Origin: Adineta vaga
Taxonomy: Eukaryota > Animalia > Rotifera
Length of the DNA stretch: 64,000 nt
Direction: 5' to 3'
Assembly: GCA_021613535.1 (NCBI GenBank)
Contig: CP075492.1
Location: forward strand, 17,422,001 to 17,486,000
The notes below the pieces were generated by a model, which saw only the letters and a program-made list of their open reading frames with translations, was not told where the DNA came from and made no database searches. Below, piece after piece: positions 2,609-64,000 of the stretch. Each line of letters opens with the position of its first letter. Position 1 is the stretch's first letter. The position numbers and the translations under genes are program-made.

Positions 2609-3869
2609 TTGTATAATTATATGATTGAACTAAAGAGTAATTTGTTAAAGTATCGTTATAATGCCTTTTCTACACTTTAGATTTTCATCGAAACGCGTAT
2701 AAATCATATCAATACGATAGAAAAAAAAGCATTTCTAAGGCTACGTGTTGGAAGTAAATAAGTCTTTTATACTTTTAAGCCGTAAGTATAAATCATAAAA
2801 TACCGTGTTTCGCAAATATTGACAGAAAATTTAACAATATAAGAAAGTAATTGAATTAGTGATTTTTCTTTTAAACTATTTTCAAGATATGGATGATATA
2901 ACGACAACTATAGTAAGACTCATCAGATCTAAAAGATTTAAAAATAAGAAAGTCATCTCGAACTGTGCGCAGTTAATTAATGAATCATAACTAGATATTG
3001 ACAAGTAAGAAGAAAAACATGGCTTTTTTAATAATAATACTTGCTGATATCTGCACTCTACGTGTAAGAGCACATTTGGATTTTGATGATTAATCACTGG
3101 TTTTAGAAACAAAATATATACTACTTTTAAATCACTATCGATATATTTGCGCAATATATTTTTTTATATCACGAGAAAAAATATCCACGTTGTTGATATG
3201 TTTTTAGTTTGTCGCTATAATATCAGAACTAAAACGAATACTGACACTATGATATATACAGAATAAAACTGACGACACTTTCGATTATAACTTAAGACAA
3301 ATAAATGTGTTTTTGCGCATGTTGCACGAATTTTCTTCTCTCCTCCTGATCATCTACACTCTTTCAAAACATTGAATTAATGAATTAGTTTTTAAGAGAC
3401 TAATTTTATTCGTTATTTATTTCAAATCGTTAGTAGGGTTTATTTGTGGATTCTTGTATTCACACCCACACCCACCCTTTGTATTATACTGTCTGTTCGA
3501 CGTTTTACGAAAGGCAATACTTATGATATCAAATGAAAAATTGTAGAATTATAGACTACGATTTCGTCTATCAAAATATATAGATAGAGGAAAAATTTCC
3601 TCGAACCTTCTGTAAGATTTTATAATAAGGGTATCATGTCTTCTGGTATGTCTTAAGTATAATAATGATATATTGAAGACGAAATGACTGAAACTATTTG
3701 GTTTTCAGGGATAAATATTATTGGGATTTAATTTCCTAAAAGGATAGAAATTAATCATAGAATATTATATTAATATTCATATTACTTCTTGCTCGTTTAT
3801 TTTAGCTGCTATTTTGAATCTTAATTACATCTTATATTTTTTTGTCTCAGATTATCTCACGTTTCAAAC

Positions 3870-5156: not shown

Positions 5157-6379
5157 ACGAATGCCTTATTTGGATTATAGACACATGAAACAAAACTGTT
5201 ATTTATATATGTATATATATTATTAATCATTGGTGTTGTTACCCCATCATTAACAAAGAGAATGTTTGTCAGTCAACTCAAATAACAAATATTTTTACCA
5301 TTTTTATATTGCGTTCAGTTATGTTTCAAATATTTAAACCAAAAGTAGATCACTTTTTGATTTTCAAGTTATCTAAAAGAATTTCTTATGATGAGATGTC
5401 ACAGTTATACACGTTCAGTGATCATTATGAAAATCTGTTTTACTTCTAACAAAATGATTCAGTGATTATGTCTTCTTTTCGTGTGTCTCTAAATTTTTGC
5501 TTTTAATCAATTAATAAAATATCGTGGTAACAGCTGTATCTATTCTCTCATATGTTATTAAGAATTGTCTGACAAAGTAGCTCATGGAAATAAAATGTCT
5601 CCATAGAAAAACGATAATCAGAATGATAAAACAAATATTTGTGATGATACTTTAAATAATGTTATGAGGATCAAAAATGATAGGAAAAATAATAAATGTT
5701 TCTATGAAGAATCCAAATGCGAACTTTCAGTTTACTAGACTAGCACTTTATCATTGAACCATAGAGACATGTTAACTTTCTTGTTGAACTCTCTTTGTTA
5801 TAAATCGAATATATATCAACTAAATAAAAAGAAATCATAAAGTAGAATAGATCTTGGCCTATATTCAATCTTCATTATTATACATGAGAGAACTTTTTTT
5901 GAATTTTTATTAAGACATATTTTTAAGATAAATCGCTCGATATGACATTGAATTTTTCAAACTAATTGTTAAAATTTCGAAGTGTGTTGAATATCTGACA
6001 GTAAGAGTTTTACCTACTTTCCATTTTATGTCAAATTTTACCTCTGGCTTTTGCGTCTTTTGATAAAAGCATTGTATGACTTTTATAATTAGAATTTCAT
6101 ATAGACATTGCCTGCTTAAATTTTGCATTAGCTTGTATGTCAGTCATTATTTCGATGTCTTGAGGATATCGGAAAAGTTAGTAACATGTTCAAGTATTTC
6201 TTGTCTGAATTCTTCTGTAAACTGGTGCTGACTTTCGCAAAGGTTGTGGTGGATGCAGAATTTAATTCTATATCGAATGAAGTTATTCTCGATGGAGATG
6301 ATTGGGAGGAAAACAATTGTACACTCACACCCTCAACGAATGAAAAAATATCGTATTCGGAAATCAAACCTCTTAATTC

Positions 6380-8785: not shown

Positions 8786-8847
8786 AAATCTTGAGGGTGT
8801 GGGTGAAGATACAGTATGAACTAACATCATCCATACCCTGAAGATTT
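8786..8847. repeat. Inverted telomere-motif palindrome
   Basis: AAATCTTGAGGGTGTGGGTGA..TCATCCATACCCTGAAGATTT. Confidence 0.75.
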
Positions 8848-9072: not shown

Positions 9073-9352
9073 ATGTCTAATGTAAAGGTTTCTTCGCCAA
9101 ATACGATACAAGGTTGTACAATAAAAAACGAATCGGATGGTGATTGTGAAGTAGAAGTGGAATATGGAGTCGAAGGACATCATTCAAGCAAGGTCAAGTT
9201 CAGTGTTCTCAGGGGTTTTCAAAGAGAACAGAACGAAGCAAAGATTGCCGATTTACCAGGGGAGCCGAGTTCGTATAAACATAGAGTGCATTCTAGTTAA
9301 ACGAAAAAACGGAGATACAATGATAGAATCAGTGTCGTCAGATAGGGTGTGA
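9073..9352 (+). pseudogene. Small protein gene, frameshifted and 3'-truncated
   Basis: Protein-like sequence in two overlapping frames (MSNVKVSSPN..; ..IECILVKRKNGDT..) ends at a telomere-motif palindrome (9343-9389). Confidence 0.4.
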
Positions 9353-9555
9353 ATGAACGGAAGAGTATCATCCACACCCACACCCTCAACTAACAGTGTA
9401 AAAGCGTATTATAGTATGATGATCTTGAAAACAAATTATTAAAAGTTTGTGGAAATGGGAAAAAAGACAAACTCTTTAATAAAATTCAAATAAAGTAACA
9501 TTCAGGATAATATCTACTACTTAAAGAACATATTTTGAATTTTCGATTAACTCAA

Positions 9556-11752: not shown

Positions 11753-12672
11753 TTTTATCTAAAACTATTCGATGATATTTATGTGCACAATATTCTTCTT
11801 GAGGGTGTATCAAATTCGGGTTCTGTTCCTCGGAATTTACACTGCAAAAAGTACAAGATCAAAAATTCTCTTTGAATTCTCAACATCACTGCTCGTGGTT
11901 ATGTCACTATATCCTATTTTCAATAGAATTCTGCTAAGCTGCTATTATAAACATTTTTCATACAGCTCGCAACTATCACGTTTATTTCACATTGTACAGT
12001 CTTATCGGTAACTTATTCCGAAACGGCTAACTTCGTGAGCAAATGATGTCTTTAACTGAGAAACTCTCTTAATAATATTTAAAAAAGAGCCATAATCAAA
12101 GAGGAGAGTCGATCGACTATAAGTAAAACTGCAGTCATTATAGGAAATTAGCTCAAGCTATCTCGTCAGTTAAAAACTAAGATGTTAGAAATAAACATAT
12201 GTAAAACACTAACTATGGAAAGAATATGAATTGAGTTTTTACGTCTCCATGCTATTTACTCTTTTGGTATTATTGCTATATTTGAGTATGAACAGAACAG
12301 GCAAGTTTTGTCCATGCAATGAAAAGTATTTTATAAGTGTTTATTGCGCACAAAATAAACGTTTTCTCTTTATATTTCTACGTCGAAATAAAAAAAACTT
12401 GTCAACGAAACGAATTCTCTTGCAAAAAAATCAAACAGCATATTGTCGCTCTGAATGCTGAAAGAATGTGGATAGAAAACAAAAATTGTTGATCAGTTTG
12501 GGTATGAGTGGGTGAGAGTGAGGATGAATAAAAGATATTCATACCCACACACCCACCCTCAAATACTTTTAATTAATTGATAGTTGTATTTTATTTGATT
12601 AAAAATATGATAGTGAAATGAACGATACAATACAAAAATATATAAATATATATATGAATCGATTTCTCATTA

Positions 12673-13682: not shown

Positions 13683-14927
13683 GTTAATTATTTTCAGTTT
13701 CTCTTATATTCTGATTGTTCTTCAAAAATGAATGATAGAATTAGAAATACTGGGGAAAAAAAGAACTTTAAGTTACGATGGAATGAAGATATAAAAAAAG
13801 AGATGATTATATACATCTCTGGCCAAAAATATAAGAACAAGCACGTTATTTTTCTTTTTCTTCTTTCCTTTTTGGATTGATATATGTCTATGAACATATA
13901 TGCGCATTCAAGCATAGTCTATACAAATATCAATTCAGAATTTCTACTTCGTTATTTATTTTAATAAAAAAGAGAAAAACAAAAATAAACTACTTGTTCT
14001 TATATATTTCGACAGCATTGTATTTTTATTTAATGTAGAGAATTTCCAAAAACATGTTTTCAGTAATTCTATATTTGGCTATTTATTTTTTGAAATGCGC
14101 AAAATATCATTTCTCCAACCATAGAAGAAACACAAGGATAATTTGACCTTCGGCAAATCTTCAAACAACATTGACAAAAAGATCATAGATAGAAATTAGT
14201 CGTTCTCCCGAATAAAAAGGAAAAAAAATTCATAATTGCATTGACATGTTTAATTTTACCAAGAAACATGTTCTGATGCATATAACTAATAAACCAGTCC
14301 TCATATTTTCTTAAGATTTTCATAGTAAAACCTTCAAAATCCCGAAAATTGTTCAAAATATTTTCAATATTGAAAATTGTTGAAAAAATTGATGGTGGGT
14401 GTGTCTATTCATCGTGCACCCTCACCCACACCCACCCACCCTCAAGATGGTAACGGGATACTGGATATTCCAAGTACTATATATATATATATACGATGAG
14501 GAATATGCAGGATCGTGTCTTCTTTCTTCTTCGATGAATTTTAATTCCTTAAAATACAATAATCTATAAAGAAACATTAAATTTTCGTGATAAATCGAAT
14601 AGACGTAGTGCAGTCAATGCTTTTCCCTAATCTTTGATGAATATCAATACGAGTAAATGAATCTACATAATCATCAATTTCTCCTAACTTACTTTCAATT
14701 AATTGAATATACAACGATTTTGTTTCTCTCGTTTAGAAAGAAAAAAATTTTTATCGTTCTTTTTTTTTCTTCATTGAGAGAAGAAGAACATATTCATTGT
14801 ACAACATAGAAGAAAAGGTGGAGGTAAGTAAAAAGTATACACTATATTTTTAATATTCAATTGACTTATCATCAAATGTCTTTATTTTTAGATTTCGATT
14901 TCAATCAATTTGTGAAACAAAGACAAA

Positions 14928-17279: not shown

Positions 17280-17920
17280 TTATTTGTGGAAATATTTTTT
17301 TGTTTAAATCGTTGCAATAATTTAATAATAAGAGTAGCCGGTACTCAACAAATAATAACTAATCCACCATAAAGTGAAATAAGAGTTGTTATTCCTAATA
17401 TAAGATTCTTTTCATCAATATATGAATAAACACATTGTTGATCATATAAACAATGAAGTGTTGATTGTAAAAGAGCTTCAATAAGATAACAACCAGTCAT
17501 TATATTATTGGATGATTGAATACATTTTGATGACAATGCACATTGACAATATATTCGATATTATTTGGTTCATAGGAAACAGATGAATAATAAGAATATA
17601 AAATCCAATCATCTGAACAAATTTGTGTTCATAGTTAAAAATTGTTTATATTTAATTGACATTTTTGAACAAGAACATTGTAATGAATTCGAATACTGTT
17701 GAAATAAATGTTTATAAATTATTAATGATGGTTTTTTCACTACGATAATAATTGTTTGAGAAGTAAAGGCAAAAAACATATAGAAAATATGTAATCGACG
17801 AATTAATTGTAATTCAGTATTACAAGGAAATAATCTTTTGAGAGAATTAAAATGAAATTTTTCAAGAAAATGAAGACCAATTAAAATAATTAATTTCAAT
17901 CCAAGTGATATTCCACCGAA
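17280..17920 (-). pseudogene. Heavily deleted remnant of a large multi-TM Cys-containing protein
   Basis: Disjoint motifs KKPSL..YSNSLQCSCS, GCYLIEALLQSTLHCLYDQQC and TTLISLYGGL, separated by frameshifts. Confidence 0.5.
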
Positions 17921-18269
17921 AAGGGTGTGGGTGTGGGTGCAATGCAAAGTGTTATCCACACCCACACCCACGTGATCCTTTTTTCAACCAAAACTTATTT
18001 TCTATTAAATCTAAAGGTGAAAAAATAATTTTTTTTGAATACAAAAAAAAAGTTAAGATAATGAATTGTCATAAGTCCTCCTAACCTTTCATTTTTCCTT
18101 TCACAGATTAGTTTCAAGGTTCTTCATCATCGTCCTGTAAGTTCATAAACAATATTTTAAGATTAAGCACTTCTGTCAAACAGGGAATTAAAAAAAAAAG
18201 TCGTATTGTTTTCGTTTGGTTTTAAGCATTCCTAATACAAACACTTTGAATTATATCAGGAAACAAAAA

Positions 18270-19298
18270 ATGACGTCTGCTGAAGAACTAAACAAAATTG
18301 CCAGCAATATTGTATTATATGTAACATCGATCTGTTTCGTATTAGGTATATTTGGTCATTGTTTAAATATTATTCTTTTAACTCGACCAGTTTTTCGAAA
18401 GAATTCTTGTACAACTTGTTTTCTTGCATCAACATTCGCTAATTTAATAATAACTCTTGTTAATAGTTCAACAACTATTAATAAATATGTAATTGGCTTT
18501 GATTTACTTGCATCAAATATAATTCTATGCAAATTCTTACGTTACACATTTTGGATGATGCGTTCATTATCTATTTGGTTCATTGTTTTAGCCAATATTG
18601 ATCGATATTTAAATAGTTCTTCTCAATTTCAACGACGTTCATTAAGTTCAATGAAAAATATCACATGATCAATTGTCTTAATTACTATTTGTATTATGAT
18701 TATATATATTCATATGGTAATTTATTATGATTTATATTATATAATTGGTAAAAAGGGTGAAATCATATCAGCATGCAATCCACAACCGGGTTTCTATGCT
18801 GTTTTTTCTGCATTTTTACATCTAATTATGTATAGTTGTTTACCCGTTATATTAATGTTTAGTTTTGGATTATTAACTTTAATTAATATTAATAAACAAC
18901 GACGCTTAATACGTCCAATGAATATGAATAGTGTTAAAAGAAAACAAACAATTCGATTAAATAATCAACTTTTGAAAATGTTACTTGTTCAAGTATTAAT
19001 AATTGCAATTGTAACATTACCATTAACAGCACAAAAAATTTTTCAATCACTTACCGAAAATTCAAATAGAAATTCATATGAACAAGCTCAAGCAAATTTA
19101 TTTATACAAATAACACAATCATTTTCTTTTCTAGTACATTCCGTTAGTTTTTATTTATTTACTTTATCCGGGAAAATATTTCGACATGAATTAAAACTTT
19201 TATTCGTTCGATTAATTCGACGATTTTCTTCTTTCGAAAGAAATAATAGATTAATAACAATCGAATTAATGCAAAGAACTGGTACTCAAACTAAATAA
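18270..19298 (+). CDS. Rhodopsin-like 7TM GPCR with an in-frame TGA at 18666-18668; probable pseudogene
   Basis: The two ORFs share a frame across a single TGA. Motifs GIFGHCLN, NIDRY and FYLFTLSGKIFR. Confidence 0.85.
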
Positions 19299-19575
19299 TA
19301 ACTTCTCACAAGATTTCTAATTCTTCTATTCGATCAAAATAAAATTTCATGTTTTATAGATCATTTCAGTTATTTCTTTAGAACATTCACTTTCTGCAAG
19401 AACAAAGATTAATGTATAAGGAAATGACATACTTTATCGCAAACTTCTTTAATGTATCTGATAAGAGTCATGCTTATATGCCGTATAGTAGCTTAAGCTA
19501 TGCATTACAAATGAAAAAAGTTCTATTTATATATGCAGTTAACATAGAGAAGTTATATATGACGAAAGAATTAAA

Positions 19576-19696
19576 ATGAGCAATTCATCTAGTAAAATAG
19601 ATTATCTAAATTTTGTATCTCGAACCACTATAGGATATGGTGGTTTAATCATTCTTGTTCTTGGTACAATTGGTAATTCTATTAATATGGTCACAT
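19576..19696 (+). pseudogene. GPCR 5' fragment (TM1 only)
   Basis: MSNSSSKIDYLNFVSRTTIGYGGLIILVLGTIGNSINMVT stops abruptly at GGGGTGTGGG. Confidence 0.7.
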
Positions 19697-19755
19697 GGGG
19701 GTGTGGGTGTGGGGTTGTGTTAGGGTCTCTTGTTAACCAACATTCACACCCTCAA
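19696..19755. repeat. Inverted telomere-motif palindrome at the junction of two truncated genes
   Basis: GGGGTGTGGGTGTGGGG..CATTCACACCCTCAA. Confidence 0.8.
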
Positions 19756-21575
19756 GATCTTGAACATCCGATATCGTGATGATCAATATTTAACACCACA
19801 AGTCTTCAACAATACAAAAGATGCATGAATATTTGATAGAATTTGTTTCTTAAATGCAGCTTACCGTGTTTACTTGTACAATATTGGTTATATACTCTAC
19901 TCCTTGTTCTCTGATACAATTATGCCGAAGATCTAGTATTTCTAATGTCTAAACAACGAAGAGGGATAAATAGAATGAGTATTATGAAAAACTAAATAAA
20001 GATTACCGTATTGATTTGTAGAGCATCAATCAAATGCTTTACTTTCTCATCGTCCAGAAAATTGTATGAGAGATCTAATATTTTTAAGGTCTAAAGAAGA
20101 TAATGCTCTGAGGAGATACGAAGGTTAAAAACTGAATGATTAATACCGTATTTAGTCGCAAAGCATCAGCTAGTTTTTGTGTCACTTCATCTTCTAAAAA
20201 GTTATTCGAAAGATCTAGTGTCATTAGTGTCTACAGCAGAAAGTATTCTAAATAAATAAGAAAAATGGGAAACTGAATGAATTTTACTTTGTTGATTCGT
20301 AAAGCATCAGGCAAGTATTGTGCTGTGATTAAATTGTTTGCGAGATATAGCACCGTGAGTGTCTGAAGAAGAGTATGCTACGAATAAATTAGAAAGTAGA
20401 AGATTGAATAAAAACTACCGTGTTCACTCGTAAAACGTCAGCTAAGTGTTGTTCTCCTTTGTCTTCAATTAAATTGCTCGAAAGATGTAGCGTAGTGAGT
20501 GTCTATAGGAGATATAGTGTTCTGTATAAAGAAAAAAGTTAAAGAGTGAATAAATATACTGTGTTCACTCGTAGAGCATCAGCTAAGTACGCTGCTCCGT
20601 AGTTGTCGATTTTATTCCAACTCAGATTTAGAATCTTAAGTGTCTAAAAGAATAAAGTGTTCGGAATAGATAGACAAATAGAATAAGACTGAATAAAGGC
20701 TACTGTGTTCACTCGTAAAACATCAGCCAAGTATTGTTCTCCTCGTCCCCAGATCAAAATTCTCGAGAGATGTAGCGTGGTGAGTGTCTAAAGAAGAGCG
20801 CTATTAATAAGTTCGGTAGTAGAAAACTAAATTAAGATTACCTTGTTCACTTGTAGAGCATCAGCCAAGTAGTTTGCAGCTTGTTCTCCTAAAAGATTCC
20901 ACTTTGAATCTAATGAGATAAGTATCTAAAGAAAAGAGTGTTATGAATGGATTACAAAATAGAAGATTATATTAAGATTACATCGTGTCGTCGTAGTTCA
21001 TCAGCCAAGAGCTCCTCTTCGTTTTCCCCAGAAGAGTTACTGGAGAGATGTAGCGTAGTTAGTGTCTTAAAAAAGACGGTGCTACGAATATACAGATATT
21101 GAAGTAAAAGACCGAATCAATATTACTGTGTTGAACCGTAGAGCGTTAGCTAATTGCCATATACGATAATCATTGATTTTATATTGTCCCAGATGTAGTT
21201 TGGTTAGTGTCTATTGTGCATAGAGTGGGATCTTTTCTAATGAGTTTATCAATTATTGGTAAATTAAGAGTCTGAACGCGATCTTATATAAAATGTACAA
21301 GCGATAAGAGGAGAATTCAGCTTTCATAAAACAAAAAGGAAATCTCAAGTTGTCATAAAAGAGTTTTTACGCTATGTCGATAAGATTGTAAACGCATTTA
21401 ATTGTATGAAATTTTTTCATTAGATTTACAGATCTACCTGATATCGTTGATAGCTATTCAGAATTTGATTGAATCGATGACAAACATTTTGTATTGAACA
21501 AACAAGACTAAACTCATCCAGATGATCGAGAATTCTGTAAACGAATTCGACCGGTAATATAATGAATGAAGACAT
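19750..21575 (-). CDS. F-box plus RI-like/NLRC3-like LRR protein with 10 LRR exons of about 84 bp; 3' end degenerate or truncated
   Basis: F-box LPVEFVYRILDHLD. Phase-0 exons such as TLKILNLSWNKIDNYGAAYLADALRVNT, each flanked by ag/gt. One exon is 75 bp. Confidence 0.85.
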
Positions 21576-22999
21576 TGTTATACGAAGTGACTGATAAAAG
21601 AAATCCAGATGAAAATATACCGATAACGAAAACGACTTTATGGCGTTATTTGCATAAAATAAATGGTATGGAGAAAATAAAAATTTAATTGACATCCACA
21701 TATATCTTTTTACACAAAATTATTATTTTATTTCATAATAATACATTGAGAATTTGACACTAAAATCAATTATGATCGAATTGAATGCAATATCTTACAG
21801 CATAAATAGATCAACACCCTCAACGAAGCACGTGGTAGAAAAGAAGAAAACATAAACATTACATTGGTGTCTTCACATTCATCTTTATCAAAGAAATGAA
21901 AAGAATACGAAATATTTTGTATACAATAAATTCCCATCTTGAACATCCATCAAATCGTTTTAATGCATTTCAAAAGTGTCAACCAAATTCATCATTAATC
22001 GATCAAATAAACCAATATGCTTTTTCAATGCCTACACATCATTCACAACTTATTTCTTCTTATGATTTAAAGATACCATATGATATTAAAGATCTACAAC
22101 ATGAATGGAATCAATATTATTTAAAATTATTTTATTGTACAAATTACAGTTCCCTTGAACGAGTATTGAATGACGTTCGACCGTATTTTTCCGGTAATCT
22201 ATGTAATCAAGATAATGTTCGAAAAGTCGAAAATCGTGTTTTTATTCCAGGAATTGGTGATAAATTTCATGCTCTTCGATATGCCTATTTAGGATACGAT
22301 GTACTTGCTAGTGACATATCAACTGTTGCAATAGAACGTCAAAAAAAAATTAATCAAAGTTTACCGATGTCATTTATTCATTATTTGTATTACAGAAAAC
22401 ACAAGACTGATTATATATATGTCACAGTTGACATGAGAATTTCAGTTGAGATTGGAATGCGCGAAAAAAAAATAGAAAAACAAAATAAAACAGAGAAATA
22501 AAAAAAGAGATAAATACAATCGAAATAAAATCATAGATAATAGATTTCAAAAAAAAAAAGAAAGAAAAAAAAATTCTTTTTTTCCACCATATTGCTTCTA
22601 TTATTGAACAAAATAAAAATCAATAGAAAATTATCAGTAAAAATCGTTTTAAATAATGCATTCAGTTTACGTTATCATAAACTAATAAAAAGGATTCTTT
22701 TATACATTTCTTCCCAATATTTCATAATTCATCTTTTAATAATGCCTTTGAAATCAAATTCTACGTACATATAAATAAATTAAATTATAAGAAAATTGTA
22801 TTTCAATGTATCCCTATGTTAATATTCATTGAATAAGCATAATCCTATTTTTTTCCTGCTCAAATTAAAAACTCATTTATTGAAAAGCAATATAAACACA
22901 GCTCACTATGACAACATTAATTAACTTAGAAACTACATACATCATTTACTATGTCTTTGTTTTTTCTCTTTTTCTTCTTAATTTATTGAATTCAATTTC

Positions 23000-24988
23000 A
23001 TGGAAATATTTATTTCGAAACTGAAATCATATATCGATAATCTTGATGAAAAAAAAAGAGAAAAATATACAATCAACAATGATATGTATTATAATATGAT
23101 GAAAGTATTAAAAAAAGAAAAAATAGACGCCTCACCAAAATTCAAATTTTGGGTGCGACATACATTTATATTAATGGAAATTGGATCAAATAATGTAATA
23201 TACAATAAAAAATCTAATTTGCCATTAATTACACAAGAAAACATCTATCAAAAAATTAAAGATTGTCACACAAACGTTGGTCATTATGGTAGAGACAAAA
23301 CATGGAGCGAGGTTCATACACTAAATTTACTTATAATTAATAAACAGAATTTTGAATAGGTCAAAAAACGATATGCTGGAATACCTCAACAAGCTGTTAT
23401 TATCTTCATCGCCATGTGCGATGCATGTCAAACTAGACGATCTTTCTATAAACCACCAGCTGGAAAACCAATAGTTTCAATTGGTTTTCTAACTAGATTT
23501 CAGGTCGATTTAATAGATATGCGAAGTACAGCATATGATGGATATAATTTTATAATGCATTGTAAAGATCATTTTACTAAATTCAGTTGGTTATTTGCAT
23601 TGAAATCGAAAGAAGCTAGTGGTGTCGCTGTTCATTTAAAAAACATATTCTATACATTTGGTCCACCTAAAATTTTACAATCCGACAATGGAAAAGAATT
23701 CGTGTAAAAAAATTATTCTATATGCTATTAAATAAATCTTTATTTAGGGCCAATGTCATTTTAAATTTAAAAAATCTATGGCCAGATTTATTAATCATTA
23801 ATGGACGTGCACGACATCCACAGAGCCAAGGTCTTGTTGAACGATCCAATGCTGTAGTTCAACAAATGTTAGGTAAATGGCTTGATGTAAATGAAACTTC
23901 TGACTGGCCAAGTGGTTTAGGTAAATGAAATTACAAGATAAAATTCTCATTTCATTCAAAAATATTTTTATTAAAAGGACCTGTGATGTTGGCAGTCAAC
24001 AACTGTATTTCACAAACAACAAAGAAAACAGCATACGAAATGGTTTTCGGTCAACCATGTAGAATTGATCATGAATTCTGGTTAGAATTACATAAAGAAT
24101 CATCGAAAAACGATTCAATTGTAAATGAAGAAGATTTACCTGAATCATTTCTCGCAAATTTAAATGCAGTTACAACATCAGTTCGTAGAAATCTAAAATT
24201 ACGTGTTCATTTTTCTTCTTTTATTTACATTTTTCTTTATTCTTTAGACCAACATCGATCATCAACAGATAATTTCTGATGAACAAACATCATCTAGATC
24301 ATCATTTCAATCTGATTTCGATGCACCTACTGAGTACATGATTTTCATTCTTTTTTTCCTATAATTCTAATTCATATGATATTCTTGATTTATAATAGAC
24401 AATCAACTGAAACAGCACATAAACGAATACGTGACGAAGCTGAAAAGCATTATATCAATACAGCAGGTACAATTAAAAGATCAATTTTATTTCATTGATA
24501 CTTGTAAAATATAATTCATATCCATTTCAGAACGACAACTAAAAATTTATGAACGTGGTTTGAAAAAACAAAAATCTTTCCAAATCAATGATATTATTGG
24601 ATTGAAAATAGCTGATGTTGACCGTTCACATACAGCACCAAGTATTTTACCTTGTAAAATTATTAAAATTATAACAAAAGATGATTCAAACAATATATTT
24701 TATAAACTCGCCACAGAAGATGGAATTATTAGTGAATTATTTCAATCATCTGATTTCATGGATTTAACACAAACTGTCTCTGCTAATTTAAGAAGAACAG
24801 ATACAAGTCAAATACCGATTGTCACATTTATTCAAGCTTGTAAAATATTTACTAAATTCAAAACAAGTAGACCATGTAAATGCGCAGGAAATTGTGATAG
24901 TAATCGTTGTCCGTGTAAGAAACGACTTATGAAATGTTGTACTAAATGTCATCGTGGTAATTCTAATACATGTAAAAACAATGTTTAA
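23000..24988 (+). CDS. Ginger/KRBA2-SCAND3-like transposase (H2C2 Zn finger, rve DDE integrase core, C-terminal Cys cluster), 7 exons
   Basis: CHTNVGHYGRDKT..CDACQ, FQVDLID, LQSDNGKEF, HPQSQGLVERSN and CKCAGNCDSNRCPCKK..CCTKCH. Six GT-AG introns give an open frame. Confidence 0.9.
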
Positions 24989-32325: not shown

Positions 32326-33058
32326 AACAAAACGAAATTTACTTTCATTTCATTTAATACAAAATTCAATGTCCCGCATGTCCCAATAATAGAAAAATAT
32401 CTATGTATAACAAAACGAAATTCACTTTCCTTTTATTTAATACAAAATTCAATGTCCCGTATGTCCCGATACTAGAAAAATATCTATGTATAATAAAACG
32501 AAATTCACTTTCATTTCATTTAATACAAAATTCAATGTCCCGTATGTCCCGATACTAGAAAAATATCTATGTATAATAAAACGAAATTCACTTTCATTTC
32601 ATTTAATACAAAATTCAATGTCCCATATGTCCCGATACTAGAAAAATATCTATGTATAATAAAACGAAATTCACTTTCATTTCATTTAATACAAAATTCA
32701 ATGTCCCGCATGTCCCAATAATAGAAAAATATCTATGTATAACAAAACGAAATTCACATTCATTTCATTTAATACAAAATTCAATGTCCCGCATGTCCCA
32801 ATAATAGAAAAATATCTATGTATAACAAAACGAAATTCACATTCCTTTTATTTAATACAAAATTCAATGTCCCGCATGTCCCAATAATAGAAAAATATCT
32901 ATGTATAACAAAACGAAATTCACATTCCTTTTATTTAATACAAAATTCAATGTCCCGTATATCCCAATAATAGAAAAATATCTATGTATAACAAAACGAA
33001 ATTCACTTTCATTTCATTTAATACAAAATTCAATGTCCCGTATGTCTCGATAATAAAA
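32326..33058 (+). repeat. Tandem array of about 9 x 83 bp inside the transposon
   Basis: AATACAAAATTCAATGTCCC recurs at 32356, 32439, 32522, 32605, 32688, 32771, 32854, 32937 and 33020 (exact 83-bp period). Confidence 0.97.
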
Positions 33059-33988
33059 ACACTTCTATATTAAAAATAAAAATCTATAATTTCAAAGCAA
33101 ACTTCAAACTCTTTCATTCTGACATTAGCGTTAATATAGGTATATAACGAAACGAATATAGATAATTCACATAAATTTATCATAACTTTTTCCACAATTT
33201 TTCTATAAAAAAATACATAATAAATTATTCTAACTTTTATTACTTAGTGGATTTAAAGAAAAATCTTTCATTTCACAATGTAATTTGATAGAAGTTTCTA
33301 AAATCTACTTTCTATTACATTAATGGAATAATAGAAATATAGAATTTATTTGAAATTTACATAGATTCCAATCTCAACTAAATTCCCTAATCGACTGCCA
33401 CATATACAAAGAAATGATTGAGAATTTTTGGAAACGAAAGGGTAAAATTGAATATTTAGTTCATGATCTTGGAACTTTGATGGAAAGAATTGATGATGAA
33501 TCTTTTGGTATAATAACAAGTTGTTATGTATGGCAAATCATGTCGAAAGAAAGAGAAAAAATAATGATTAAAGAACTTTTTCGTATATTAAGTAAAGGTG
33601 GTTTATTAAATATGTTTTGTCATAATATTCCTGCGGATAAATTGATTTATCGAATTAATTTATTAGAAGAAATGGGTTTTATATGTAATATATCTCGTCA
33701 AGGATTAGAATATTGGTTAAAATCATCGTCATCCATTGGTTATGAAAAACGACAGATGGTCAAAAAAGAAATTGAAAAAAAAGAAATGGAAGAAAAACGA
33801 CAATTATTACTAAGATATCCTGAATTGAAACGAGTTTATTTTTTTCTTTCATCCGGATAATAATACGATAAACAATATTGTAAAGAATCAACGCAGCATA
33901 ACATCGAAAGAACTTTCATGAACTATCAAGATTTGTTTCAATGAATCTTTCTATTCCAAATTCAATCCTTTATCAAATCAAAAAGTAT

Positions 33989-34064
33989 TTGAAGGTGTGG
34001 GCGTGGGTGTACATTGGTGCAAGTCAGTTTCACTATCCACCCTCACCCACACCCACACCCTCCA
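33989..34064. repeat. Inverted telomere-motif palindrome
   Basis: TTGAAGGTGTGGGCGTGGGTG..CACCCTCACCCACACCCACACCCTCC. Confidence 0.8.
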
Positions 34065-38545: not shown

Positions 38546-38870
38546 GCCGCCCGTTAGTTTCTCCTAGGAAAGATTCAGATTTCCGGTTTCCCCAGGCCGA
38601 TTTTCAATTGCCCTAATTTGGAACTTATCCTGCGACATATATTCACTCATTTCACACACCTGACAGCTTTCAGTTGTTATCGCTGTTCTTTTTTTAAATC
38701 GTCTGAACAGAACATAACAAATATAATTTCGTTATCAGTGTGGGTGAGTTCCCTTATCTTTAAACCCGCTCACTCTACCACTGACTATAAAAAGCTTCTA
38801 TTCACACAATTTAACAATTTATTGTTGATAAAATCAGACTTAAGGCCAGGATAAATATAATCATTTAGAT

Positions 38871-40181
38871 ATGGCAGCATTGCCCTTTCTCCTTGGTGGT
38901 ATAGCAGCGCTCGGTGGAGGTGCCAAGCTATTATGGGATAAAAATTATCCAAAAGCTCCGATTTCGACAATTTACGACGTCGTCATTCGTATGAGTAGCC
39001 TACTCGCATTGAAAACTACTGGTTGGGAGATAGTGCTTGGTGAGAAAATGCAAGATGTCCATCTAACGGAACATGAGTTTAGCAATGATCGTGGTGTGAT
39101 TGTTTCTGTTATGGGTTCTTATAATCGTGGAAAGTCATTTCTTATCAACGAACTTTGTCATATCAATTTACCAAACTTGTCTTGGTACCTACACCCACCC
39201 ACACCCTCAATTGTCAGAGATAAACACAATGACAAAAAAGCAACAGAAGCGCTCCTTAGAGAGTTAGCCCTTCATTTGTCTTCATTTCTTATTATTGTGG
39301 TGAATCGTCTACGGACAACAGACCAGACATATATTCAGCAAGTACTGACTCAGTTGAAAAACACTCAGTCAAAGAAAGATGTGCTTATTGTTCACAATCT
39401 GCTGGATGTTGAAACACTAGACGATATGGAAAAAATTATAGAAAAAGAAGTGGTACATCTTTTCGATGCTATACCTAAGGAAACAGGATCAAGAATAGGG
39501 GATCGATGGTTGAACGTGCCGTTTTATCGATCCGTCCAGAATGGTATCAACTTGCGACATTTCGTTTTAGCCAAGAAAGATTCAAGAGCAGCTCAAGAAT
39601 GGAATGATAAATCCATTGACGATATAATGAATATTCTCCAGGCATCAACAAATGAACGAAGAAATCTAAATGTAATTGCTAAAGTTATAACTTATGTCAA
39701 TACGAAACTTCCACATTTATTTCGAGGTGAACAAGGGGCAGATGGGAATGTTATTGATGCCGATACAACCTCATTAAAATTCGAAATGCATAAAAGTAAG
39801 CCCAGTCTTTTTGTTTCACAGCGGGCAGGATTGGATGACCTGAATGACGATCCGTTCCCGATTGACCTCTCACCAAAACTTGTGTATGATGATGCCGGCT
39901 ATTTCGTTGGAATTACTTCGACCGATAGAGGTGAATGGCAACCTCGTTGTAATATTTATGAGACCACAGATGATATACATGTTATAGTAGAGCTTACTGG
40001 TTTTAAAGAATCATTTGAAAATCCAGTCGCTCGTCAGGAACAAATACCCATTGGTATATTTAAATTAGAAATTCCGTTAGGTTATCGAGTTAAACACACA
40101 GATGCAAAGCTGCATCGCGACCAAGGCTTTTATCGAATCACTTGTAATAAGGTGAAAAATACTTCGACACGCCTGAAATAG
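38871..40181 (+). CDS. P-loop GTPase-like domain plus C-terminal HSP20/alpha-crystallin-like domain; the G2/G3 region appears to be replaced
   Basis: VSVMGSYNRGKSFLINEL (G1), LIVHN and WQPRCNIYETTDDIHVIVELTG..GIFKLEIPL. A telomere motif at 39191-39210 is translated as LHPPTPS. Confidence 0.7.
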   Translation: MAALPFLLGGIAALGGGAKLLWDKNYPKAPISTIYDVVIRMSSLLALKTTGWEIVLGEKMQDVHLTEHEFSNDRGVIVSVMGSYNRGKSFLINELCHINLPNLSWYLHPPTPSIVRDKHNDKKATEALLRELALHLSSFLIIVVNRLRTTDQTYIQQVLTQLKNTQSKKDVLIVHNLLDVETLDDMEKIIEKEVVHLFDAIPKETGSRIGDRWLNVPFYRSVQNGINLRHFVLAKKDSRAAQEWNDKSIDDIMNILQASTNERRNLNVIAKVITYVNTKLPHLFRGEQGADGNVIDADTTSLKFEMHKSKPSLFVSQRAGLDDLNDDPFPIDLSPKLVYDDAGYFVGITSTDRGEWQPRCNIYETTDDIHVIVELTGFKESFENPVARQEQIPIGIFKLEIPLGYRVKHTDAKLHRDQGFYRITCNKVKNTSTRLK

Positions 40182-40456: not shown

Positions 40457-40502
40457 TTGAGGGTGTGGGTGTGGGGAAAGATTAGACATCCATACCCCTC
40501 AA
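40457..40502. repeat. Inverted telomere-motif palindrome
   Basis: TTGAGGGTGTGGGTGTGGGG..CATCCATACCCCTCAA. Confidence 0.8.
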
Positions 40503-40503
40503 T

Positions 40504-41487: not shown

Positions 41488-42125
41488 CTTTTAAAATATT
41501 TAAACAAAAAGAAAAAAAAGTATTTTGTGATAAAAAAAAGTACAATGACGTTGTATCTTATCTTCCATTAACTCTTCAAAATGTTGATATCATTCTTTAC
41601 ATGATGTTTTATTTTATAAAAGAATATAGTAGAGATGGGTGTGGGTGTGAGTATTCCCATGTTTCTCACCCACAACCACACCCACACCCTTTTTAAGACT
41701 TATGAAGAAGATGTGAAAAATCATAGGAGCGAATTAATTTAAGATCCAGATTTATTTTTACATACCGTCAATTTAATGCACTCTACGATCTTTTTCTAAT
41801 CTTTCTCTCAATAATTGGCCAACGCTTCATCACAAACAAACTCGCCTACGAGATATTTAAGGACAATAATGCATGCAAAAAAGTGTTGTCAAGTTTTCAA
41901 CCTTGAAATCACTTGTGTGCTTTTAAAACAAACGGAGATTTTTTTTTCTTCTTTCTTTTCTTTGTTTATTTTACTATTTTTAGTACAAAAAAGAAACAGA
42001 ACAATCCCTTTGACGTGAGAGTTTTTATTGACGTAATCATAGTCAATAAAATCAATAGTTACTGTTCACTATAAAAAGGCATCAAACAACGAGAGTTGTC
42101 ATTCATCAGTTGAAAAAAAATCAAA

Positions 42126-46587: not shown

Positions 46588-46992
46588 GTTTGAAGGACTA
46601 AGAAGATTTCTGAAGCATCTTTTTAAAATAGAAATAAACTTGATAACCTCTAAGCCATTACCTTTAATTGAAAAACATAACTATCACCTGGTGATTCGCT
46701 CGAATCATTTTCGAGTGTGGGTGCGGTTACTTTTAAAATTGAATGTTCATACACACCCGCACCCACACCCTTGGCATCATGTTTATTTCGTATTCGGTCA
46801 GATCTCGGAATTCCGGGAAGTGTCTTCTATAGAACAGAACTATCGAATATCATTAGAATATTTCATCTATTCAAATCGAAATTCTTCTGAATATGAAAAA
46901 AATTCTCGATTTATTTTTAAAAAAAAGTGATTTCATTTCTGACATTCGAAATTATGAATATATGATCAATTGAATTGAATTGGAATAGTATT

Positions 46993-50166: not shown

Positions 50167-50531
50167 TTACTTTGTTCACATACGGCTATACAGAATACTT
50201 GTCAATAAAGAATATTTTATACCTACGAGAATGACGACATTCTACGCCTCCTTCTCACGTTTTATGTGTAGGCTGGATATTAAAAAAATACACATAATGA
50301 CGATATGGGAAATGTGTTTGTTATTCCTTCGTATACAAAATGATGCATTGTCAACAAGCTGACTCAGTGTTTTGAGTATGTATTTAGAGTGTGGGTGTGA
50401 GTTTCTCTTATTTACATCCACATCATCATCCTATCGGATCCAATAAAATTCAACTATTATAGTAAAATAATCAAATACTTTTATTTATTGTTATATAATA
50501 TAAATAAAATAGAAACCGTCCAACTGTTTGT

Positions 50532-55583: not shown

Positions 55584-55918
55584 TCCATGTTGAAGTAAAG
55601 AAGGGTGTGGGTGGGGTGTGGGTTGATATTCTGCCGATCCTTATCAACACCCTTATTCCAAGTTTATTATTCGTAAAACGATAAATTCAATTAGTTTATG
55701 AACGAAAATCAAGTCCAAACTCCCGTCGTAAGTTTCATTTTTTTTCTTTTGTAACAATTTCTTTCATCACTTTTTCTTATCAAAGATACCGGAGCACGCC
55801 TAGATTTCTCTCTGCTTGTCGATAAGGTCATACTTTTTTTTCATTTTTCATCTAAGCAACATACAGGAGAAGATATTATCTGTGATAAAAAGTATTTTAT
55901 ATTTTATTACTTTCGAAA

Positions 55919-58441: not shown

Positions 58442-59112
58442 ACTTTATGATCTTACACTAAAGACTATTTTTTAATGTATGATGTATTTGAGGGTGTGAG
58501 TGCTAATGTTAACTTAGCCTATACTCACACCCATATTACTGTGAACTTCTATAGTGCCACGTTTTCTAGTCTTTTGGTAAACTTAAATAACAAATTTCAA
58601 ATTTTGAATTAAATTGTTCTAATATTGGTTTCATTGAATTGAAATCGATCGAGATAAGTAAGAAATGTATGAAAACTGTTACTTAAATATTGAAAATAAA
58701 TCATTGATTGCATGGATAAATTTAGATGTCGATAATTAGTTACCATTGGTATATCTAAATGACGACGTTAAATTTTGACACACAGTGTGAGTATACGTTG
58801 AATGATTAAAAGTTCATGTAGATCACGAATACTTATTGAAACTTTAATAACCATATCGAAGACTAATATCAATTCGATTTAAACAACGATGTGGAAAACC
58901 ATTTGAAAAAATAAATTGATGAATATCAAATTGTTTAACATGATCAAGAATTGTCATGACATTCTAAGTTAGATAGAATTTTAATAGCGATTTGAAACCG
59001 ATGATTAAGTGAATAAAAAATAGATTAAGGTTCTCGAGCAGTGAAACATTTACAAAATTTCCAATAGTATTTAGGAAAAATAATCTTGTTTAAAATATAA
59101 AAAATATATGAT

Positions 59113-62100
59113 TTAATTCGAATGTTTATTCGCTTTTTGACAAGCATCTATTTTAGCTGACTTTCTTTTTGTTCCTTGACCTCTAAAAATCGATCCATCT
59201 GGCATTTGAACGCAACAAATAGCCATCGATTGACCATCGATTTCTTCTACATATTCTCTACAAAACAAAGATTATCAATGAGATTTTCGTTTTAGAAAAC
59301 GATTGTAACTTACGCAATTACTTTACCACCATGTTCAGAAAACAGTCGAATTGGATTTAAATTTGGATGTTGAATAGTTTGATCTATACATATGAATAGC
59401 AGAAAAGAGGATATTTTAAATAATTCTATCAAGATCATACTAATATAATTATGAAGTAATGGTTCAAAGACATCCCAAACGACTTGTAATGAATTATTTG
59501 AATCAAGAAAAACAGCACCAACAAGTGCTTCGAAAACGTCAGCTAACGCTTTTGGAGCTGTTGTATTTGCCCATTGATCAAGATCCTTATTCAAATATTG
59601 ATTAGTTGTTTGATCTTTTGAAAAAAGATCTTCATCACCTGCATAAGATGATATTTGTCCAAATAGATCGGTTGAATTATGTAGAATCTTTGTATGTAAA
59701 CCACAAGCTACGAAAATATATGCCAATCGTCCATTGTTTGATATATCTTGTCGAATATCTGTTACTCTTCCTAAACATACGAACAGGATTTATTAGAAAT
59801 ACATTCGTTATAATCTTATTATACCAGGTGTAATTGTTTCATTAAAATTAACAAATGCATAACGTGTAATCAAGAAATCAAGTATGGCATCACCGAGAAA
59901 TTCCAATCTAAAAACAATCAACTGATTAAAATTCAGATTACACAAAATGACTAACCGTTCATAACAATCTGTTATTCGATTAGCAAAATTCGATGGATGA
60001 GTGAATGCAGCAATAAGATAAGCTTTATTCTGAAATATATAATTAATTTTTGTCTCAATTGTTTCAAAAGCTTGATCAATATAAAATATATTTGTTAATC
60101 GATTAATCGGTTCATTATCTAAATTCATTGTTTGAACACGTAGAATCGACGGTATTTTCATCGTGTGACCTATAGAGTGAAAAGATTTCTAACAAAAGAA
60201 AGAAAAATGAATTGAAATATATTTACCTTGATTATCAATTGGAATTACATCAAGTCCAAGATAATGCATAAATTTTAATGTTGTTGTATAATCACTTTCA
60301 ATAAGAAATGCACCGATAAATGCTTCGATCATATCACTAAATTGTTTTTGTTTTGCAGTTTGATGTGTATATTCTTGATGATCAATTTCATTAATTTTAT
60401 ATCCAGGTGGTAACCAATTAGCTTCTTTACCTCGAAAGATTATTTTCTTTGCATATAAATATTCTTTTAGATTGTTTTTAACTGCTAATTGATAGAGATT
60501 TCTATTGGAAATTTGAACTTTCTTTTTACTTGTAAGCAGTCCAGCACCAGCTGATGGATATTGAATGTATAATGACATTGAAACAGCTAATTTAAGAAAA
60601 CAATCACCAAGTATTTCAAGATTTTCATTATCCATTTGTTCACCAGTTGAACGACGTGTTACAGATTGAAAAAGAATATTAGATAATGGTTGAAAATTCG
60701 TACAAATATTTGTTAAATCTAAACTCAATGTTGTCAATGGAAGTACATTTTTATTCATTGTTTTAAGACAATCTGTAAAACTAATTGGTGTTGATATTTG
60801 TAATACATTCATTCCTACAGAAGAACTATTTAGATGAGTATTGAATAGGATACGTAATTGTTCAATGTAATGTATTTGAGTAATACGAACGAGAATACTG
60901 GGTAATTTTTGAATTAATTGTAAATCATCAGCATTTAGTGGTGCATAACGAATTAATTCAATAGGAAAGTAGAAAACTTGAGTGTTTGATGTTGTAGTTG
61001 AATTTTTAACGCTTGGAGCTAATGGATAAAGATAATCAATTCGTGGTTTTTTAATTGATTTCATTTGTGCTAATACAGAATCTTGTTGAAAATGAATAGT
61101 TGGACATTTATCTTGAAAGTAATCAGCATAAGTCTTAATCATATCTGATTTTCTTTTATGTTCCCATGAATCAGAAATACGTTTCATTGAAACATTTTCT
61201 CTATCTTTTCTAAAGAATGTTTTTTGAGGTAAATGTTGAGCAATATACAATTCATCATCGGATAATTGTGAATGATCATCAATTGATTGATTTAATCGAT
61301 TATAAATTGTTAACATACGTTCATTATCAATTTCATTCGTATCTATATGAACAAAGATGATTCATAAGAATGTGTCACTTATTTTTTTTACTTTTTATTA
61401 AACATAATAATAATTTGAATGATGATTGTTCGATATTGAATTGAAGAATTGATTCTTTTAGAATTTCATCAAAAAGATTTTCAAATAAATAACGATTAAA
61501 ACATTCAAATACATTTCGATATTTCATATAATCAATTGATTGAATATAAATAATCTTTACAGTAAATATTTCATTAGAAATTCCATATAAATTAAAATTT
61601 GGTAACTAAGTAAGATAAAATTAACAAAAAACAACAACAAATAATCAATTTACTTCAAGTAATTTCGATGGAACAATAAAACCAAGTTGATCTTTTTCAT
61701 CTTTGAAATGAATTTTATAAAGATACCAAATATTTGTTACATCAATAGTCAATGGTGGAAATGAAATGATTTGTTTTGAAAATATTTCTATCATATCATC
61801 ACATTTCTTCTCGATTGTTTCGTCAAATAGTTTTATATGATGTGGTAAACAATCTTCATTCAATCCTCCTACAAAACATCGAATAATCATTTTTGATATT
61901 CTATAATTTTACCTTGTCGATGAAGTAATTCCACCATTTTTAAACAACATTGAAATTTTGCTAATTTTTTTCTTGATTTTTCACACTATAGAAAATAATT
62001 AAGAAGAATTTATGTTTAATTGAAGATCAACTTACAATAATATCATCACGAATAGGACAATTAGCTGGCATTAAAAGAATACTTTTATATGTGTCATGAT

Positions 62101-64000
62101 CAGTGCGAGAAAAAAGTATTCGGGGTGGACAAAGTTGACCATTACCAATAACAGCACAATATCTTTATTTTAAAAAGACAAAATCTTCTTTTCTATCAGA
62201 TTTCTTCCAATAACTTACTGATAAATAATTTGTGCAGCACGTATTGCACTAATAACAACACCACTTTCTGTTCGATAAGGTTCTAATTGTTCTAAATCTT
62301 TAATAGTATCATCATCATCATCAATAGAAAATCCTGTTTGAATTCTCTAATCAATCAATTAAATAAAATATAAATATGAATTTAATACAATTTACTTTAA
62401 CAATTTCTTCGTAAGTTTTATAATCTGTTATATTATTGTTTATTTCTTTTTCATCGATTCCATCGATGAGAAGTACATATGAAGCATTATTTTTAGCACG
62501 AGCACGACCTTTTGATTGCATATATGAAGCAAAATTGACTGGTTTATTGAAGCGAAATACAAGATTACATTTGGGAATATCAAGACCTTCTTCAACTACT
62601 GCTGTAGCTATTAGAATATTCACGTCACCAACATGAAATTCTTTGAGTACATGACGCTAAAAGAAATTATAAACATATAAAGGAAAATCTAAATTCATTT
62701 CAAACCAGATATTTTGCATTCATTTTTGCATTTACAACATTTGCTCGTGGACCAGTTACATATTTGATTTTAAATTCATTATTATTTGATGGTAATAATC
62801 TTCTATTCAATTCCATCAAAACTTCAGTCAAAATACTAGCTGTGTAGATACGTTCAACAAATACAATACATCGAGTTAAATTGTTAATTTCGAAATCTTT
62901 TCTAATACGTTGATATAATTCGAGTACTTTTGAACTGAATAAGATATCATTTTGATTTTGATAGAAATTAAATAGATTTTGAAGAATATCATTAACAAGA
63001 CAATCAATACGTTGTACAGCATCATCAAATAATTGTTTTCCTTGTGATTCATTCATATGATCTAAGATTTGAGATGATTTTAACAGTTTTTGAAGTGCTT
63101 TTGTTGCTAAGAAAAGTCCATAGAGACCTAATTCATTTCCAAGTTGAACTAATTGTTCAAGATAACGATTAAGTCGAGGAATATTTACATATTCCGATTG
63201 AAGAAATATTGTATAATCGACTGAGACAGTATTGTAATCAATGACATCCTCTGCCAAATAATCTTTACTCAATATAATTTCACTCAGATCATGTTCACGT
63301 TTTTCACGTTCAGCTTTTTTCTCTTTTAAATACAGCGCTAAATCGTTTAAAATTGATTGTATTGTCTACATATTAGAGAATATTTAGAGTTGGATCACAA
63401 AGATACGAATAGACTTACATCAAAAGCAATAGAAATATTTTCATAACGATCAACTATACATTTTTTGTAATTTGAACATATTATATGTTCAACTTTAGCT
63501 GAAGTTCCACATCGAATACTTTCTTCTCGATTTGTACCACTAGCAACACGAGCTCTACAGAGAGAAAAAACAGACATTTCATTCTCTGTTCGTACATATA
63601 TAGATTTATTATACCTGTACGTATCTTCAATATTTTTTGCAGCCTTACTCAGTTGATCGGGTTTGAGTTTTTTTGCACTAATCGATGCTGTAAGACCAAG
63701 TATACGTGGTTTTTCATCACACTCATCATAATGTCTTCTCATTAGAGCTGCATAACAATTTTCTCCACTTGAATGATGACATTCATCAAAAATCAACAAA
63801 TTTACTTTACACAATGCTAAAATGTTCAATAATATTTATAATTCAATAGAAACAATCTAAAGACATACGAAAATACTTATGATCAACAAGATCAAGAAAG
63901 ACTTTTGCTGTAAAAACTAACACTTGATGCTGTTCAAATTCATTCATCCATCGTAATTTATCCCATAGATCAACGCCTAATTCACCATAATATCTTCCAA
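59113..64000 (-). CDS. Dcr: Dicer (DExD helicase, DUF283, divergent PAZ, RNase IIIa and IIIb, dsRBD); 5' end lies beyond the window
   Basis: IFDECHH, LGLTAS, ATAVVEEGLDIPKCN, YMQSKGRAR, ENLEILGDCFLK..SDMIEAFIGA and ERLEFLGDAILD..ADVFEALVGA. Confidence 0.95.

Follow-up and report, generated by a model that had tools for sequence, protein, structure and literature searches.

The window analysed here is a 64,000-nucleotide stretch of the genome of the bdelloid rotifer Adineta vaga (assembly GCA_021613535.1, contig CP075492.1, positions 17,422,001 to 17,486,000 of the forward strand), and coordinates below count from its first letter. At 19696-19758, two tracts confront each other with a middle of 30 bases between them: a G-rich one of telomere type, made of TGTGGG units, and a short C-rich one. 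This block stands between the stub of a gene for a rhodopsin-type G protein-coupled receptor (GPCR; 19576-19692, plus strand) and the tail of a gene for an F-box protein with leucine-rich repeats (LRR; 19783-21575, minus strand). TGTGGG is given as the bdelloid telomere repeat in the available text of two papers (PMC7943196, PMC8494291). We conclude that the block is the genuine scar of a junction, one of a kind that recurs, at a place where coding sequence was lost.

On the plus strand, the G-arm (19697-19714) reads GGGGGTGTGGGTGTGGGG, in TGTGGG units, and passes into a degenerate extension of irregular units, TTGTGTTAGGG (19715-19725). A linker, TCTCTTGTTAACCAACATT, occupies 19726-19744 and reads on the minus strand as AATGTTGGTTAACAAGAGA, a run-on after the right arm; the C-arm (19745-19751) is one unit only, CACACCC, and the outer edge is marked by TCAAGAT (19752-19758; ATCTTGA on the minus strand). 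The arms match in inverted orientation over 18 nt at 78%, or over 10 nt at 90%, complementarity (pair I9). Folded as DNA, the block reaches -11.6 kcal/mol (z-score -1.27). The original prediction had called it a telomere palindrome; facing arms of telomere type are indeed present, but the hairpin is weak and the term overstates the case, because 20 of 200 shuffled sequences fold as well. Within TTGT(G)TTAGGG, the extension 19715-19725 also includes the telomere unit common among animals, TTAGGG, and an environmental copy (metagenome locus L029) has the same irregular stretch.

The receptor gene breaks off at this block. Its stub keeps codons 1-39, to the end of the first transmembrane segment (TM1; ..GTIGNSINMV), and these residues are 79% identical to residues 1-39 of P0001, a 315-residue GPCR of Adineta ricciae (98% of the 40-residue query), which was the sole match among 17 candidates in a word-based database search (BLASTP identities 31/42). 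Identity to P0001 ends at ..NSINMV, where the G-arm starts. When P0001 was compared with the window by tblastn, residues 1-42 matched at the stub and elsewhere only distant paralogues were hit, at 24-29% identity; the stub itself gave no match in Pfam at E values up to 10 or by BLASTP against the neighbouring GPCR. The proposal that the GPCR stops right after TM1 is borne out, with 39 of the 315 codons of P0001 left and the rest missing from the window, and the full-length version anticipated in a sister species exists in A. ricciae. An open reading frame (ORF; 19576-19779) runs through the block, as might be expected if the GPCR gene contained a short intron (GT...AG, ~59 nt) or an intron-generating element there, and GG/GTGTGGG ... 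CCCTCAAG/ offers well-placed GT and AG at an intron-like length. This reading fails for want of GPCR sequence past the unit: instead of an in-frame continuation, nothing GPCR-like lies downstream on the plus strand, and the right flank carries a gene on the opposite strand. We consider an intron highly improbable.

On the right, the evidence for a cut is weaker. The F-box/LRR gene, which has Pfam F-box matches and an F-box exon starting at 21575, contains eight to nine LRR exons of 84 nt with introns of ~57 nt, all beginning AG/ACA CTx in phase 0. The last clear LRR exon is 19865-19948 (minus strand), and a short terminal exon starts at 19803, behind an acceptor AG at 19805-19804. Read in phase 0, as the eight clear LRR exons are, the terminal exon gives TCGVKY and a stop at 19785-19783. 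An LRR-like reading, LVVLNIDHHDIGCSRS followed by a stop, does end at a TGA (19754-19752) that abuts the arm and lies within the edge motif, so that the last exon can be said to run into the arm as had been claimed; it requires, however, a one-base shift from phase 0. Because the frame that ends at the arm is not that of the other LRR exons, the claim that this gene too was cut loses strength. At the DNA level, 70 of 500 random 49-mers were as similar to LRR exons as the 49-nt end piece is, and this similarity is not significant. At the least, the unit crowds the tail of the gene, with 28 nt from stop to edge motif. A word search with the F-box exon as query found no longer LRR orthologue. An exhaustive search with the same exon returned 483 relatives, mostly single-exon fragments (best identity 70%), and in the five longer F-box relatives compared the C-termini were unrelated or varying, with no longer LRR orthologue identified. 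The LRR exons (minus strand, 19948-21065) begin ACACTCACCACGC.., resembling the C-rich telomere strand (ACACCC/TCACCC), and the minus-strand reading of the target unit mimics an LRR exon start: AG/ACCCTAACAC.. = TLTQPHTHTP.

The junction was examined in contigs of public sequencing reads. In runs X1, X2, X3 and X5 (four studies) and in X8, 17894-19826 is spanned by a 1933-nt contig free of differences and gaps, and a 197-nt contig in X15 lies on 19640-19836, also with no difference. The depth of the 1933-nt contig in X1, X2, X3 and X5 (82, 44, 60 and 14) is that of other zero-difference contigs, and none of the contigs recorded there skips the unit or shows a joint at it. Runs presumed to be RNA contained 0.00 of the sequence words of 17500-22000. 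A misassembly visible in reads, which the original prediction had named as a threat to its reading, is excluded, because identical contigs of these six public runs from four studies cross the target block without a single difference. One could appeal to an assembly artefact or a chance simple repeat on the ground that the hairpin energy of the target alone is not beyond that of shuffles. The identical junction in six runs refutes this account, to which we give next to no credence; telomere-type 12-mers (at most one mismatch), moreover, number 23 in the window against 0.01 expected.

With 31-letter words, contig ends and depth suggest that the right flank has a second genomic copy, which departs between 19796 and 19797, 42 nt past the arm, because a contig starting at 19797 is deeper than the junction contig (1.4-2.0 times) and carries allele-like differences (nine in X3 and four in X5 over 555 nt, like collapsed alleles). 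The 38 nt between the edge motif and this departure (19759-19796, minus strand) may be a remnant of the LRR terminal exon or filler. On the other side, the 1933-nt contig ends at most 30 nt from, or exactly at, the outer edge of a sister block at 17923-17971, which faces the target across a 1.7-kb GPCR segment and consists of a 17-nt G-arm, a 16-nt middle and a 16-nt C-arm. No other contig at least 80% alike on 19400-19796 was found in X1 or X8. These observations hint that only one chromosome copy has the 1.9-kb block, which holds both units, the stub and a GPCR gene interrupted by an in-frame TGA. In X11, a different sample, nothing covers 19400-19690 or 19760-19900, and only look-alike units of other loci were seen. 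The GPCR gene inside the block (18267-19298) is otherwise full-length; its TGA lies at 18666-18668 (..MKNIT-stop-SIV..), and it may be a pseudogene. One contig in all four runs joins 17395 to 17705, skipping 309 nt, a structural difference close to the 17923 unit. We also considered 17924-19796 as an insertion splitting one exon and rejected this, as the frame left of 17923 fits the LRR-like and not the phase-0 reading and looks like the start of another gene.

The contents of the target block recur at other loci. The irregular part of its G-arm is common to another locus of the same genome in read contigs and resembles L029. One read locus with unrelated flanks matches 19699-19742 with seven differences, and another, likewise with unrelated flanks, matches 19699-19758 with six differences and six gap letters; in both, the left edge carries ATCTTGA. 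The reappearance of the irregular repeats and the middle in copies elsewhere suggests a templated unit rather than a simple palindrome. The original prediction of a deletion junction sealed by a palindrome therefore stands as to the junction, which is real, and as to the loss of coding sequence from the GPCR, but not as to the nature of the seal. A multi-kb deletion in place is likewise one of two options, as it is just as conceivable that the flanks originated at separate places.

Edge motif and middle are features of a wider family. In the window, TTGA directly precedes the first GGG in 9 of 32 arms (background frequency of TTGA, 0.009) and ATCTTGA does so in 3 of 32. Metagenomes scanned for two exact 11-nt arms yielded at least 121 matches in at least 119 loci, many of them GC-rich bacterial hairpins; all metagenome counts that follow are among the matches listed. 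After dropping duplicates and loci with less than 80 nt of flank, 110 loci were kept, and a crude rule of our own (flank GC below 0.42 and no perfect 5-nt stem) split them into 41 rotifer-like and 69 other loci. By this split, ATCTTGA, TTGA and TGA stood at the edge of 5, 9 and 14 of the 81 rotifer-like arms, and of 0, 2 and 5 of the 132 other arms. Prokaryote genome contigs (596 Gb) scanned for ATCTTGAGGGTGTGGG yielded at least 120 loci, a number in keeping with chance; among the matches listed, two had AT-rich flanks and none was clearly rotifer.

Middles related to that of the target lie in the window at 39180-39189, 50400-50413 and 14405-14415, and in metagenome loci L016, L022, L029, L040, L048, L050, L072, L073 and L075. 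Across 54 middles (41 from the metagenome and 13 from the window), five 6-mers were enriched: TGGATG (9), AAGAGA (6), AGAGAA (6), GTGAAT (5) and AATGTT (5). Each of these counts exceeds all 300 shuffles for that word; the top count of any word in the shuffles was 8. On the G-rich strand, many arms follow the same order of edge motif, repeats and run-on, the run-on being AATGTTGGTTAACAAGAGAC in the target, GGTACCAAGACAA in a patch at 39177 and GGGTAAAGAGAAGAC in L040, L048, L050, L072 and L073. A hammerhead-like reading of the middles (GTTTC...TCATCA, 50400-50431) was rejected since helix II cannot form.

The patch at 39177-39209 (plus strand) is a one-armed copy, TTGTCTTGGTACCT followed by a C-arm, ACACCCACCCACACCC, and TCA, within an ORF (38844-40178) for a GTPase plus HSP20-type protein. 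This ORF has 71 database matches, many of them full-length rotifer homologues; the homologue P0153, 99% identical and named from A. vaga, has a 327-residue gene model that skips the patch region. In alignment A1, 32 residues (GNLIHTEGISITTAKKRVEDVVFIDTAGTDTA in P0154) that are kept in seven of seven full-length homologues are replaced in frame by 11 (LSWYLHPPTPS). The residues lost include switch I and the DTAG motif, which leaves a GTPase without its G2/G3 motifs. Middle and edge agree with those of the target, host sequence has been lost at this patch, and there is neither hairpin nor duplication. Because it is one-armed and in frame and conserved codons have gone, it looks like a patch over a break and not like a cut-and-paste element or a chromosome fusion.

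Within the window, 10 sites yield 14 matches to the strict head-to-head pattern GGGTG-N8-38-CACCC, where chance would give 0.03, and the reverse, tail-to-tail order is never matched. With weaker copies at 8792 and 40457, the family counts at least 12 copies in 64 kb, and further single arms lie at 3461, 6320, 39191 and 50389. The copies sit at or near gene ends, and the four similar sites listed in the original prediction (9343, 17921, 46710 and 55601) hold the same kind of block. The strict pattern describes the copies at 9345-9389, 33994-34060, 41636-41689 and 55603-55652. At 8792-8840 both edge motifs are present (ATCTTGA ... TGAAGAT), at 14393-14448 the right edge reads TCAAGAT, and at 40457-40503 the edges are TTGA ... 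TCAA. The stem of the copy at 12508-12562 extends into non-telomeric ATGAATA/TATTCAT, and at 46715-46770 a rare variant, GGGTGCGG, is mirrored in both arms. The copy at 58488-58532, new to the list, follows the stop codon of an alpha/beta hydrolase gene at a distance of 50 nt. When 11 copies were folded, three did better than every one of 200 shuffles, and the target ranked with the weakest; the sister block at 17923, at the left end of the 1933-nt contig, reaches a z-score of -4.33, with 0 of 200 shuffles as good. Compared with itself, the window showed nothing but internal tandem repeats, and no paralogous segments that end at the units. A further unit, also absent from the earlier list, was noted at 6296-6337, with a degenerate G-arm.

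Foldback elements and other miniature transposons with long terminal inverted repeats combine a hairpin shape with many copies and conserved ends. The units could accordingly descend from a small hairpin-shaped mobile element (foldback or like a miniature inverted-repeat transposable element) with telomere-like inverted ends (ATCTTGAGGGTGTGGG...), inserted here before later recombination or breakage removed the rest of the GPCR. The copy number would suit such an element, as would defined, mirrored ends and partly shared middles, the mirroring of rare variants (46715) and of non-telomeric bases (12508) between arms, and the 44-60 nt of the target copy that three loci share; terminal inverted repeats (ATCTTGAGGG... 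/ ...CCCTCAAGAT) do occur in some copies. Yet target-site duplications are absent from both copies with two complete edges (8792-8840 and a locus in X11/X15), and the GPCR does not resume past the unit as an interrupted target would. Host sequence is gone both there and in the GTPase gene, whose copy is one-armed, and end length varies from ATCTTGA through TTGA and TGA to none, the best-formed copies lacking these ends. No transposase-encoding partner was seen, and no genome-wide search for one was made. The units differ from foldback and long-inverted-repeat transposons in each of these respects (no duplication, lost host sequence, variable ends, one-armed copies), and we judge a mobile element unlikely.

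Facing telomere arrays at an internal site are also the mark of fusion scars such as human 2q13, where a single event joined whole chromosomes and the flanks are subtelomeric. The target shares the facing arrays with 2q13, but instead of a single site between two former subtelomeres there are at least 10 strict sites, flanked by cut coding sequence and a gene end; the units are many and tiny, cut through genes and have a common middle. On a smaller scale, the window might be a stack of capped fragments, each unit arising from two independent new telomeres when telomerase-capped ends or fragments were joined nose to nose. Fixed head-to-head polarity would be the necessary result of 3' G-rich caps, and each segment between blocks, bounded by a C-arm on its left and a G-arm on its right, resembles a small linear chromosome; one example, 17956-19714, looks specific to one chromosome copy. 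New telomeres at A. vaga breaks are reported in the available text of one study (PMC13564844). Independent synthesis does not, however, explain the irregular units (GGGGTTGTGTTAGGG) and middle common to different loci, the enriched words in the 54 middles or the one-armed GTPase patch, and we think this origin quite unlikely.

We therefore lean towards reading the target block as a templated repair patch of telomere repeats that sealed a break, an interpretation that seems to us somewhat probable. A telomere-type reverse transcriptase (telomerase or the enzyme of Athena/Terminon elements) would extend a broken 3' end on an RNA whose relevant part may be roughly ...GUCUCUUGUUAACCAACAUU-CACACCC-UCAAGAU. 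Copying would start at or inside UCAAGAU and leave ATCTTGA, TTGA, TGA or nothing at the edge; the graded edge motif would then reflect a variable starting point. One or more passes over the repeat template, followed by run-on into its upstream part, would produce the shared middle, and the TGAGGG unit, common at edges, could come from realignment on UCA. The C-rich far end of the product, or a second extension from the other end, would pair with the G-rich tail of the other broken end, which often would carry a G-rich extension of its own, and the gap would be sealed. The picture would be the same if another genomic copy of the unit, and not an RNA, had been copied. The source, RNA or DNA, is expected to have UCAAGAU and GUCUCUUGUUAACC as neighbours of the repeat template. 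Such a patch, which has no known present function, would leave the GPCR as a dead stub and deprive a gene end of its normal tail.

Several observations weigh against a templated patch. Several of the best-formed copies (17923, 41636 and 46715) have an edge motif on neither side, and arms that mirror rare variants (46715) or non-telomeric bases (12508) would also be explained by a hairpin-shaped mobile unit. The point at which the right flank's second copy departs is 38 nt past the edge motif and not at the edge of the patch, and no empty or ancestral allele, such as would attest insertion at a break in one step, was seen for the target locus. The RNA template is hypothetical, the whole window had 0 matches to hammerhead or other Rfam families at gathering score, and the enrichment of edge motifs in the metagenome depends on the crude split described above.

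Whether these copies stem from one small RNA is a separate question. We tentatively propose, as a reading less likely than not, that the units are run-through DNA copies of such an RNA, most simply the bdelloid telomerase RNA around its template (~5'-GUCUCUUGUUAACCAACAUU-CACACCC-UCAAGAU-3'); our literature search found no described bdelloid telomerase RNA. If it is true, telomerase or the Athena enzyme would be a routine break-repair polymerase in bdelloids, stitching gene-sized fragments together, and there would be a physical route for shuffling subtelomeric gene families and perhaps foreign DNA. It would also provide a sequence tag for the telomerase RNA gene, such as ...GTCTCTTGTTAACCAACATTCACACCCTCAAGAT... 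without a facing G-arm.

Insertions of this general type have precedents. Short interstitial telomeric sequences (s-ITS) of vertebrates, including those with telomerase RNA pieces (TERC-ITS), are reportedly treated by Nergadze and colleagues in 2007. According to the accessible text of Sola et al. 2021 (PMC8537989), TERC-ITS arose as insertions during the repair of double-strand breaks, with deletions or filler at the site and, in some, a flanking piece copied from RNA adjacent to the template; 3 of 41 have head-to-head repeats beside a piece copied from just downstream of the template, and the head-to-head arrangement is put down there to another enzyme at work on the opposite side of the break. 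The rotifer units resemble them, as far as that text goes, in having internal telomere-type repeats and sequence loss at the break: the species' own repeat stands at an internal site (19697-19714), the GPCR lacks residues 40-315, and the GTPase gene has 11 residues in place of 32. Measured against the same text, they differ in being head-to-head as a rule, in occurring at more than 10 sites in 64 kb and in being much shorter. Their flanking pieces (ATCTTGA, and a middle ending AAGAGAC) are unmatched to any telomerase RNA, our searches having found none described for bdelloids.

Closer in taxonomy are breakpoint scars in A. vaga lines, where the available part of a 2026 Science Advances paper (PMC13564844) describes telomere repeats (TGTGGG) and Athena fragments at deletion breakpoints and transient new telomeres that leave scars. 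Genus or species, repeat and position at points of sequence loss are the same as here. The evidence in that part of the paper consists of soft-clipped reads ending in repeats, and it mentions no fixed head-to-head units, shared middle or edge motif. Athena/Terminon elements are Penelope-like retroelements that lack an endonuclease and use exposed 3' ends, at telomeres or breaks, as primers; telomere repeats cap these elements, and host genes are often caught between them, according to the portions available of three papers (PMC8557442, PMC6431247, PMC3846280). Terminon RNA 3' ends carry (ACACCC)n or (TCACCC)n, as one of these states in its accessible text (PMC6431247), and TCACCC is the reverse complement of the TGAGGG unit at the edges of the units described here. 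Unlike Athena/Terminon insertions, the target unit adjoins no reverse transcriptase ORF or hammerhead motif: the window gave 0 Rfam matches, and no reverse transcriptase domain was found among 53 ORFs scanned. Athena/Terminon arrays, moreover, are head-to-tail with repeats in one direction in the descriptions available, whereas the present units are head-to-head. That subtelomeric genes are interspersed with short stretches of telomere repeats is a long-standing observation (PMC2861651). Our literature search, with supplements and two key papers outside its reach, found no fixed head-to-head units with a common middle and edge motif in bdelloids. By comparison with these systems, the target appears to be a variant of repair insertions already known elsewhere, the locus being of moderate interest and the family of more.

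These units bear on how broken ends are rejoined in bdelloids. Bdelloid rotifers survive massive chromosome breakage, and their chromosome ends are unusually shuffled and rich in gene families. If the units are fixed repair patches, each of them marks an old break, with edge and middle recording the template of the repair enzyme, and the identity of that enzyme or RNA, together with the frequency at which it cuts or recombines genes, becomes testable. For annotation, the GPCR stub, and probably the neighbouring gene end, should be marked as remnants.

The window as a whole is AT-rich eukaryotic DNA and contains genes for GPCR, kelch, TPR, F-box/LRR, SDR, hydrolase and Dicer-like proteins. Just right of the F-box/LRR gene, at 22982-24276, lie broken integrase (rve) ORFs of a retroelement of the long terminal repeat type. 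A tandem repeat at 32326-33059 comprises 8.9 copies of an 83-nt unit at 95% identity, in a C-poor region of strong GC skew (30-33 kb). The Dicer-like gene (59313-63835, minus strand) encodes a helicase C domain, two RNase III domains and a DEAD/ResIII helicase piece.

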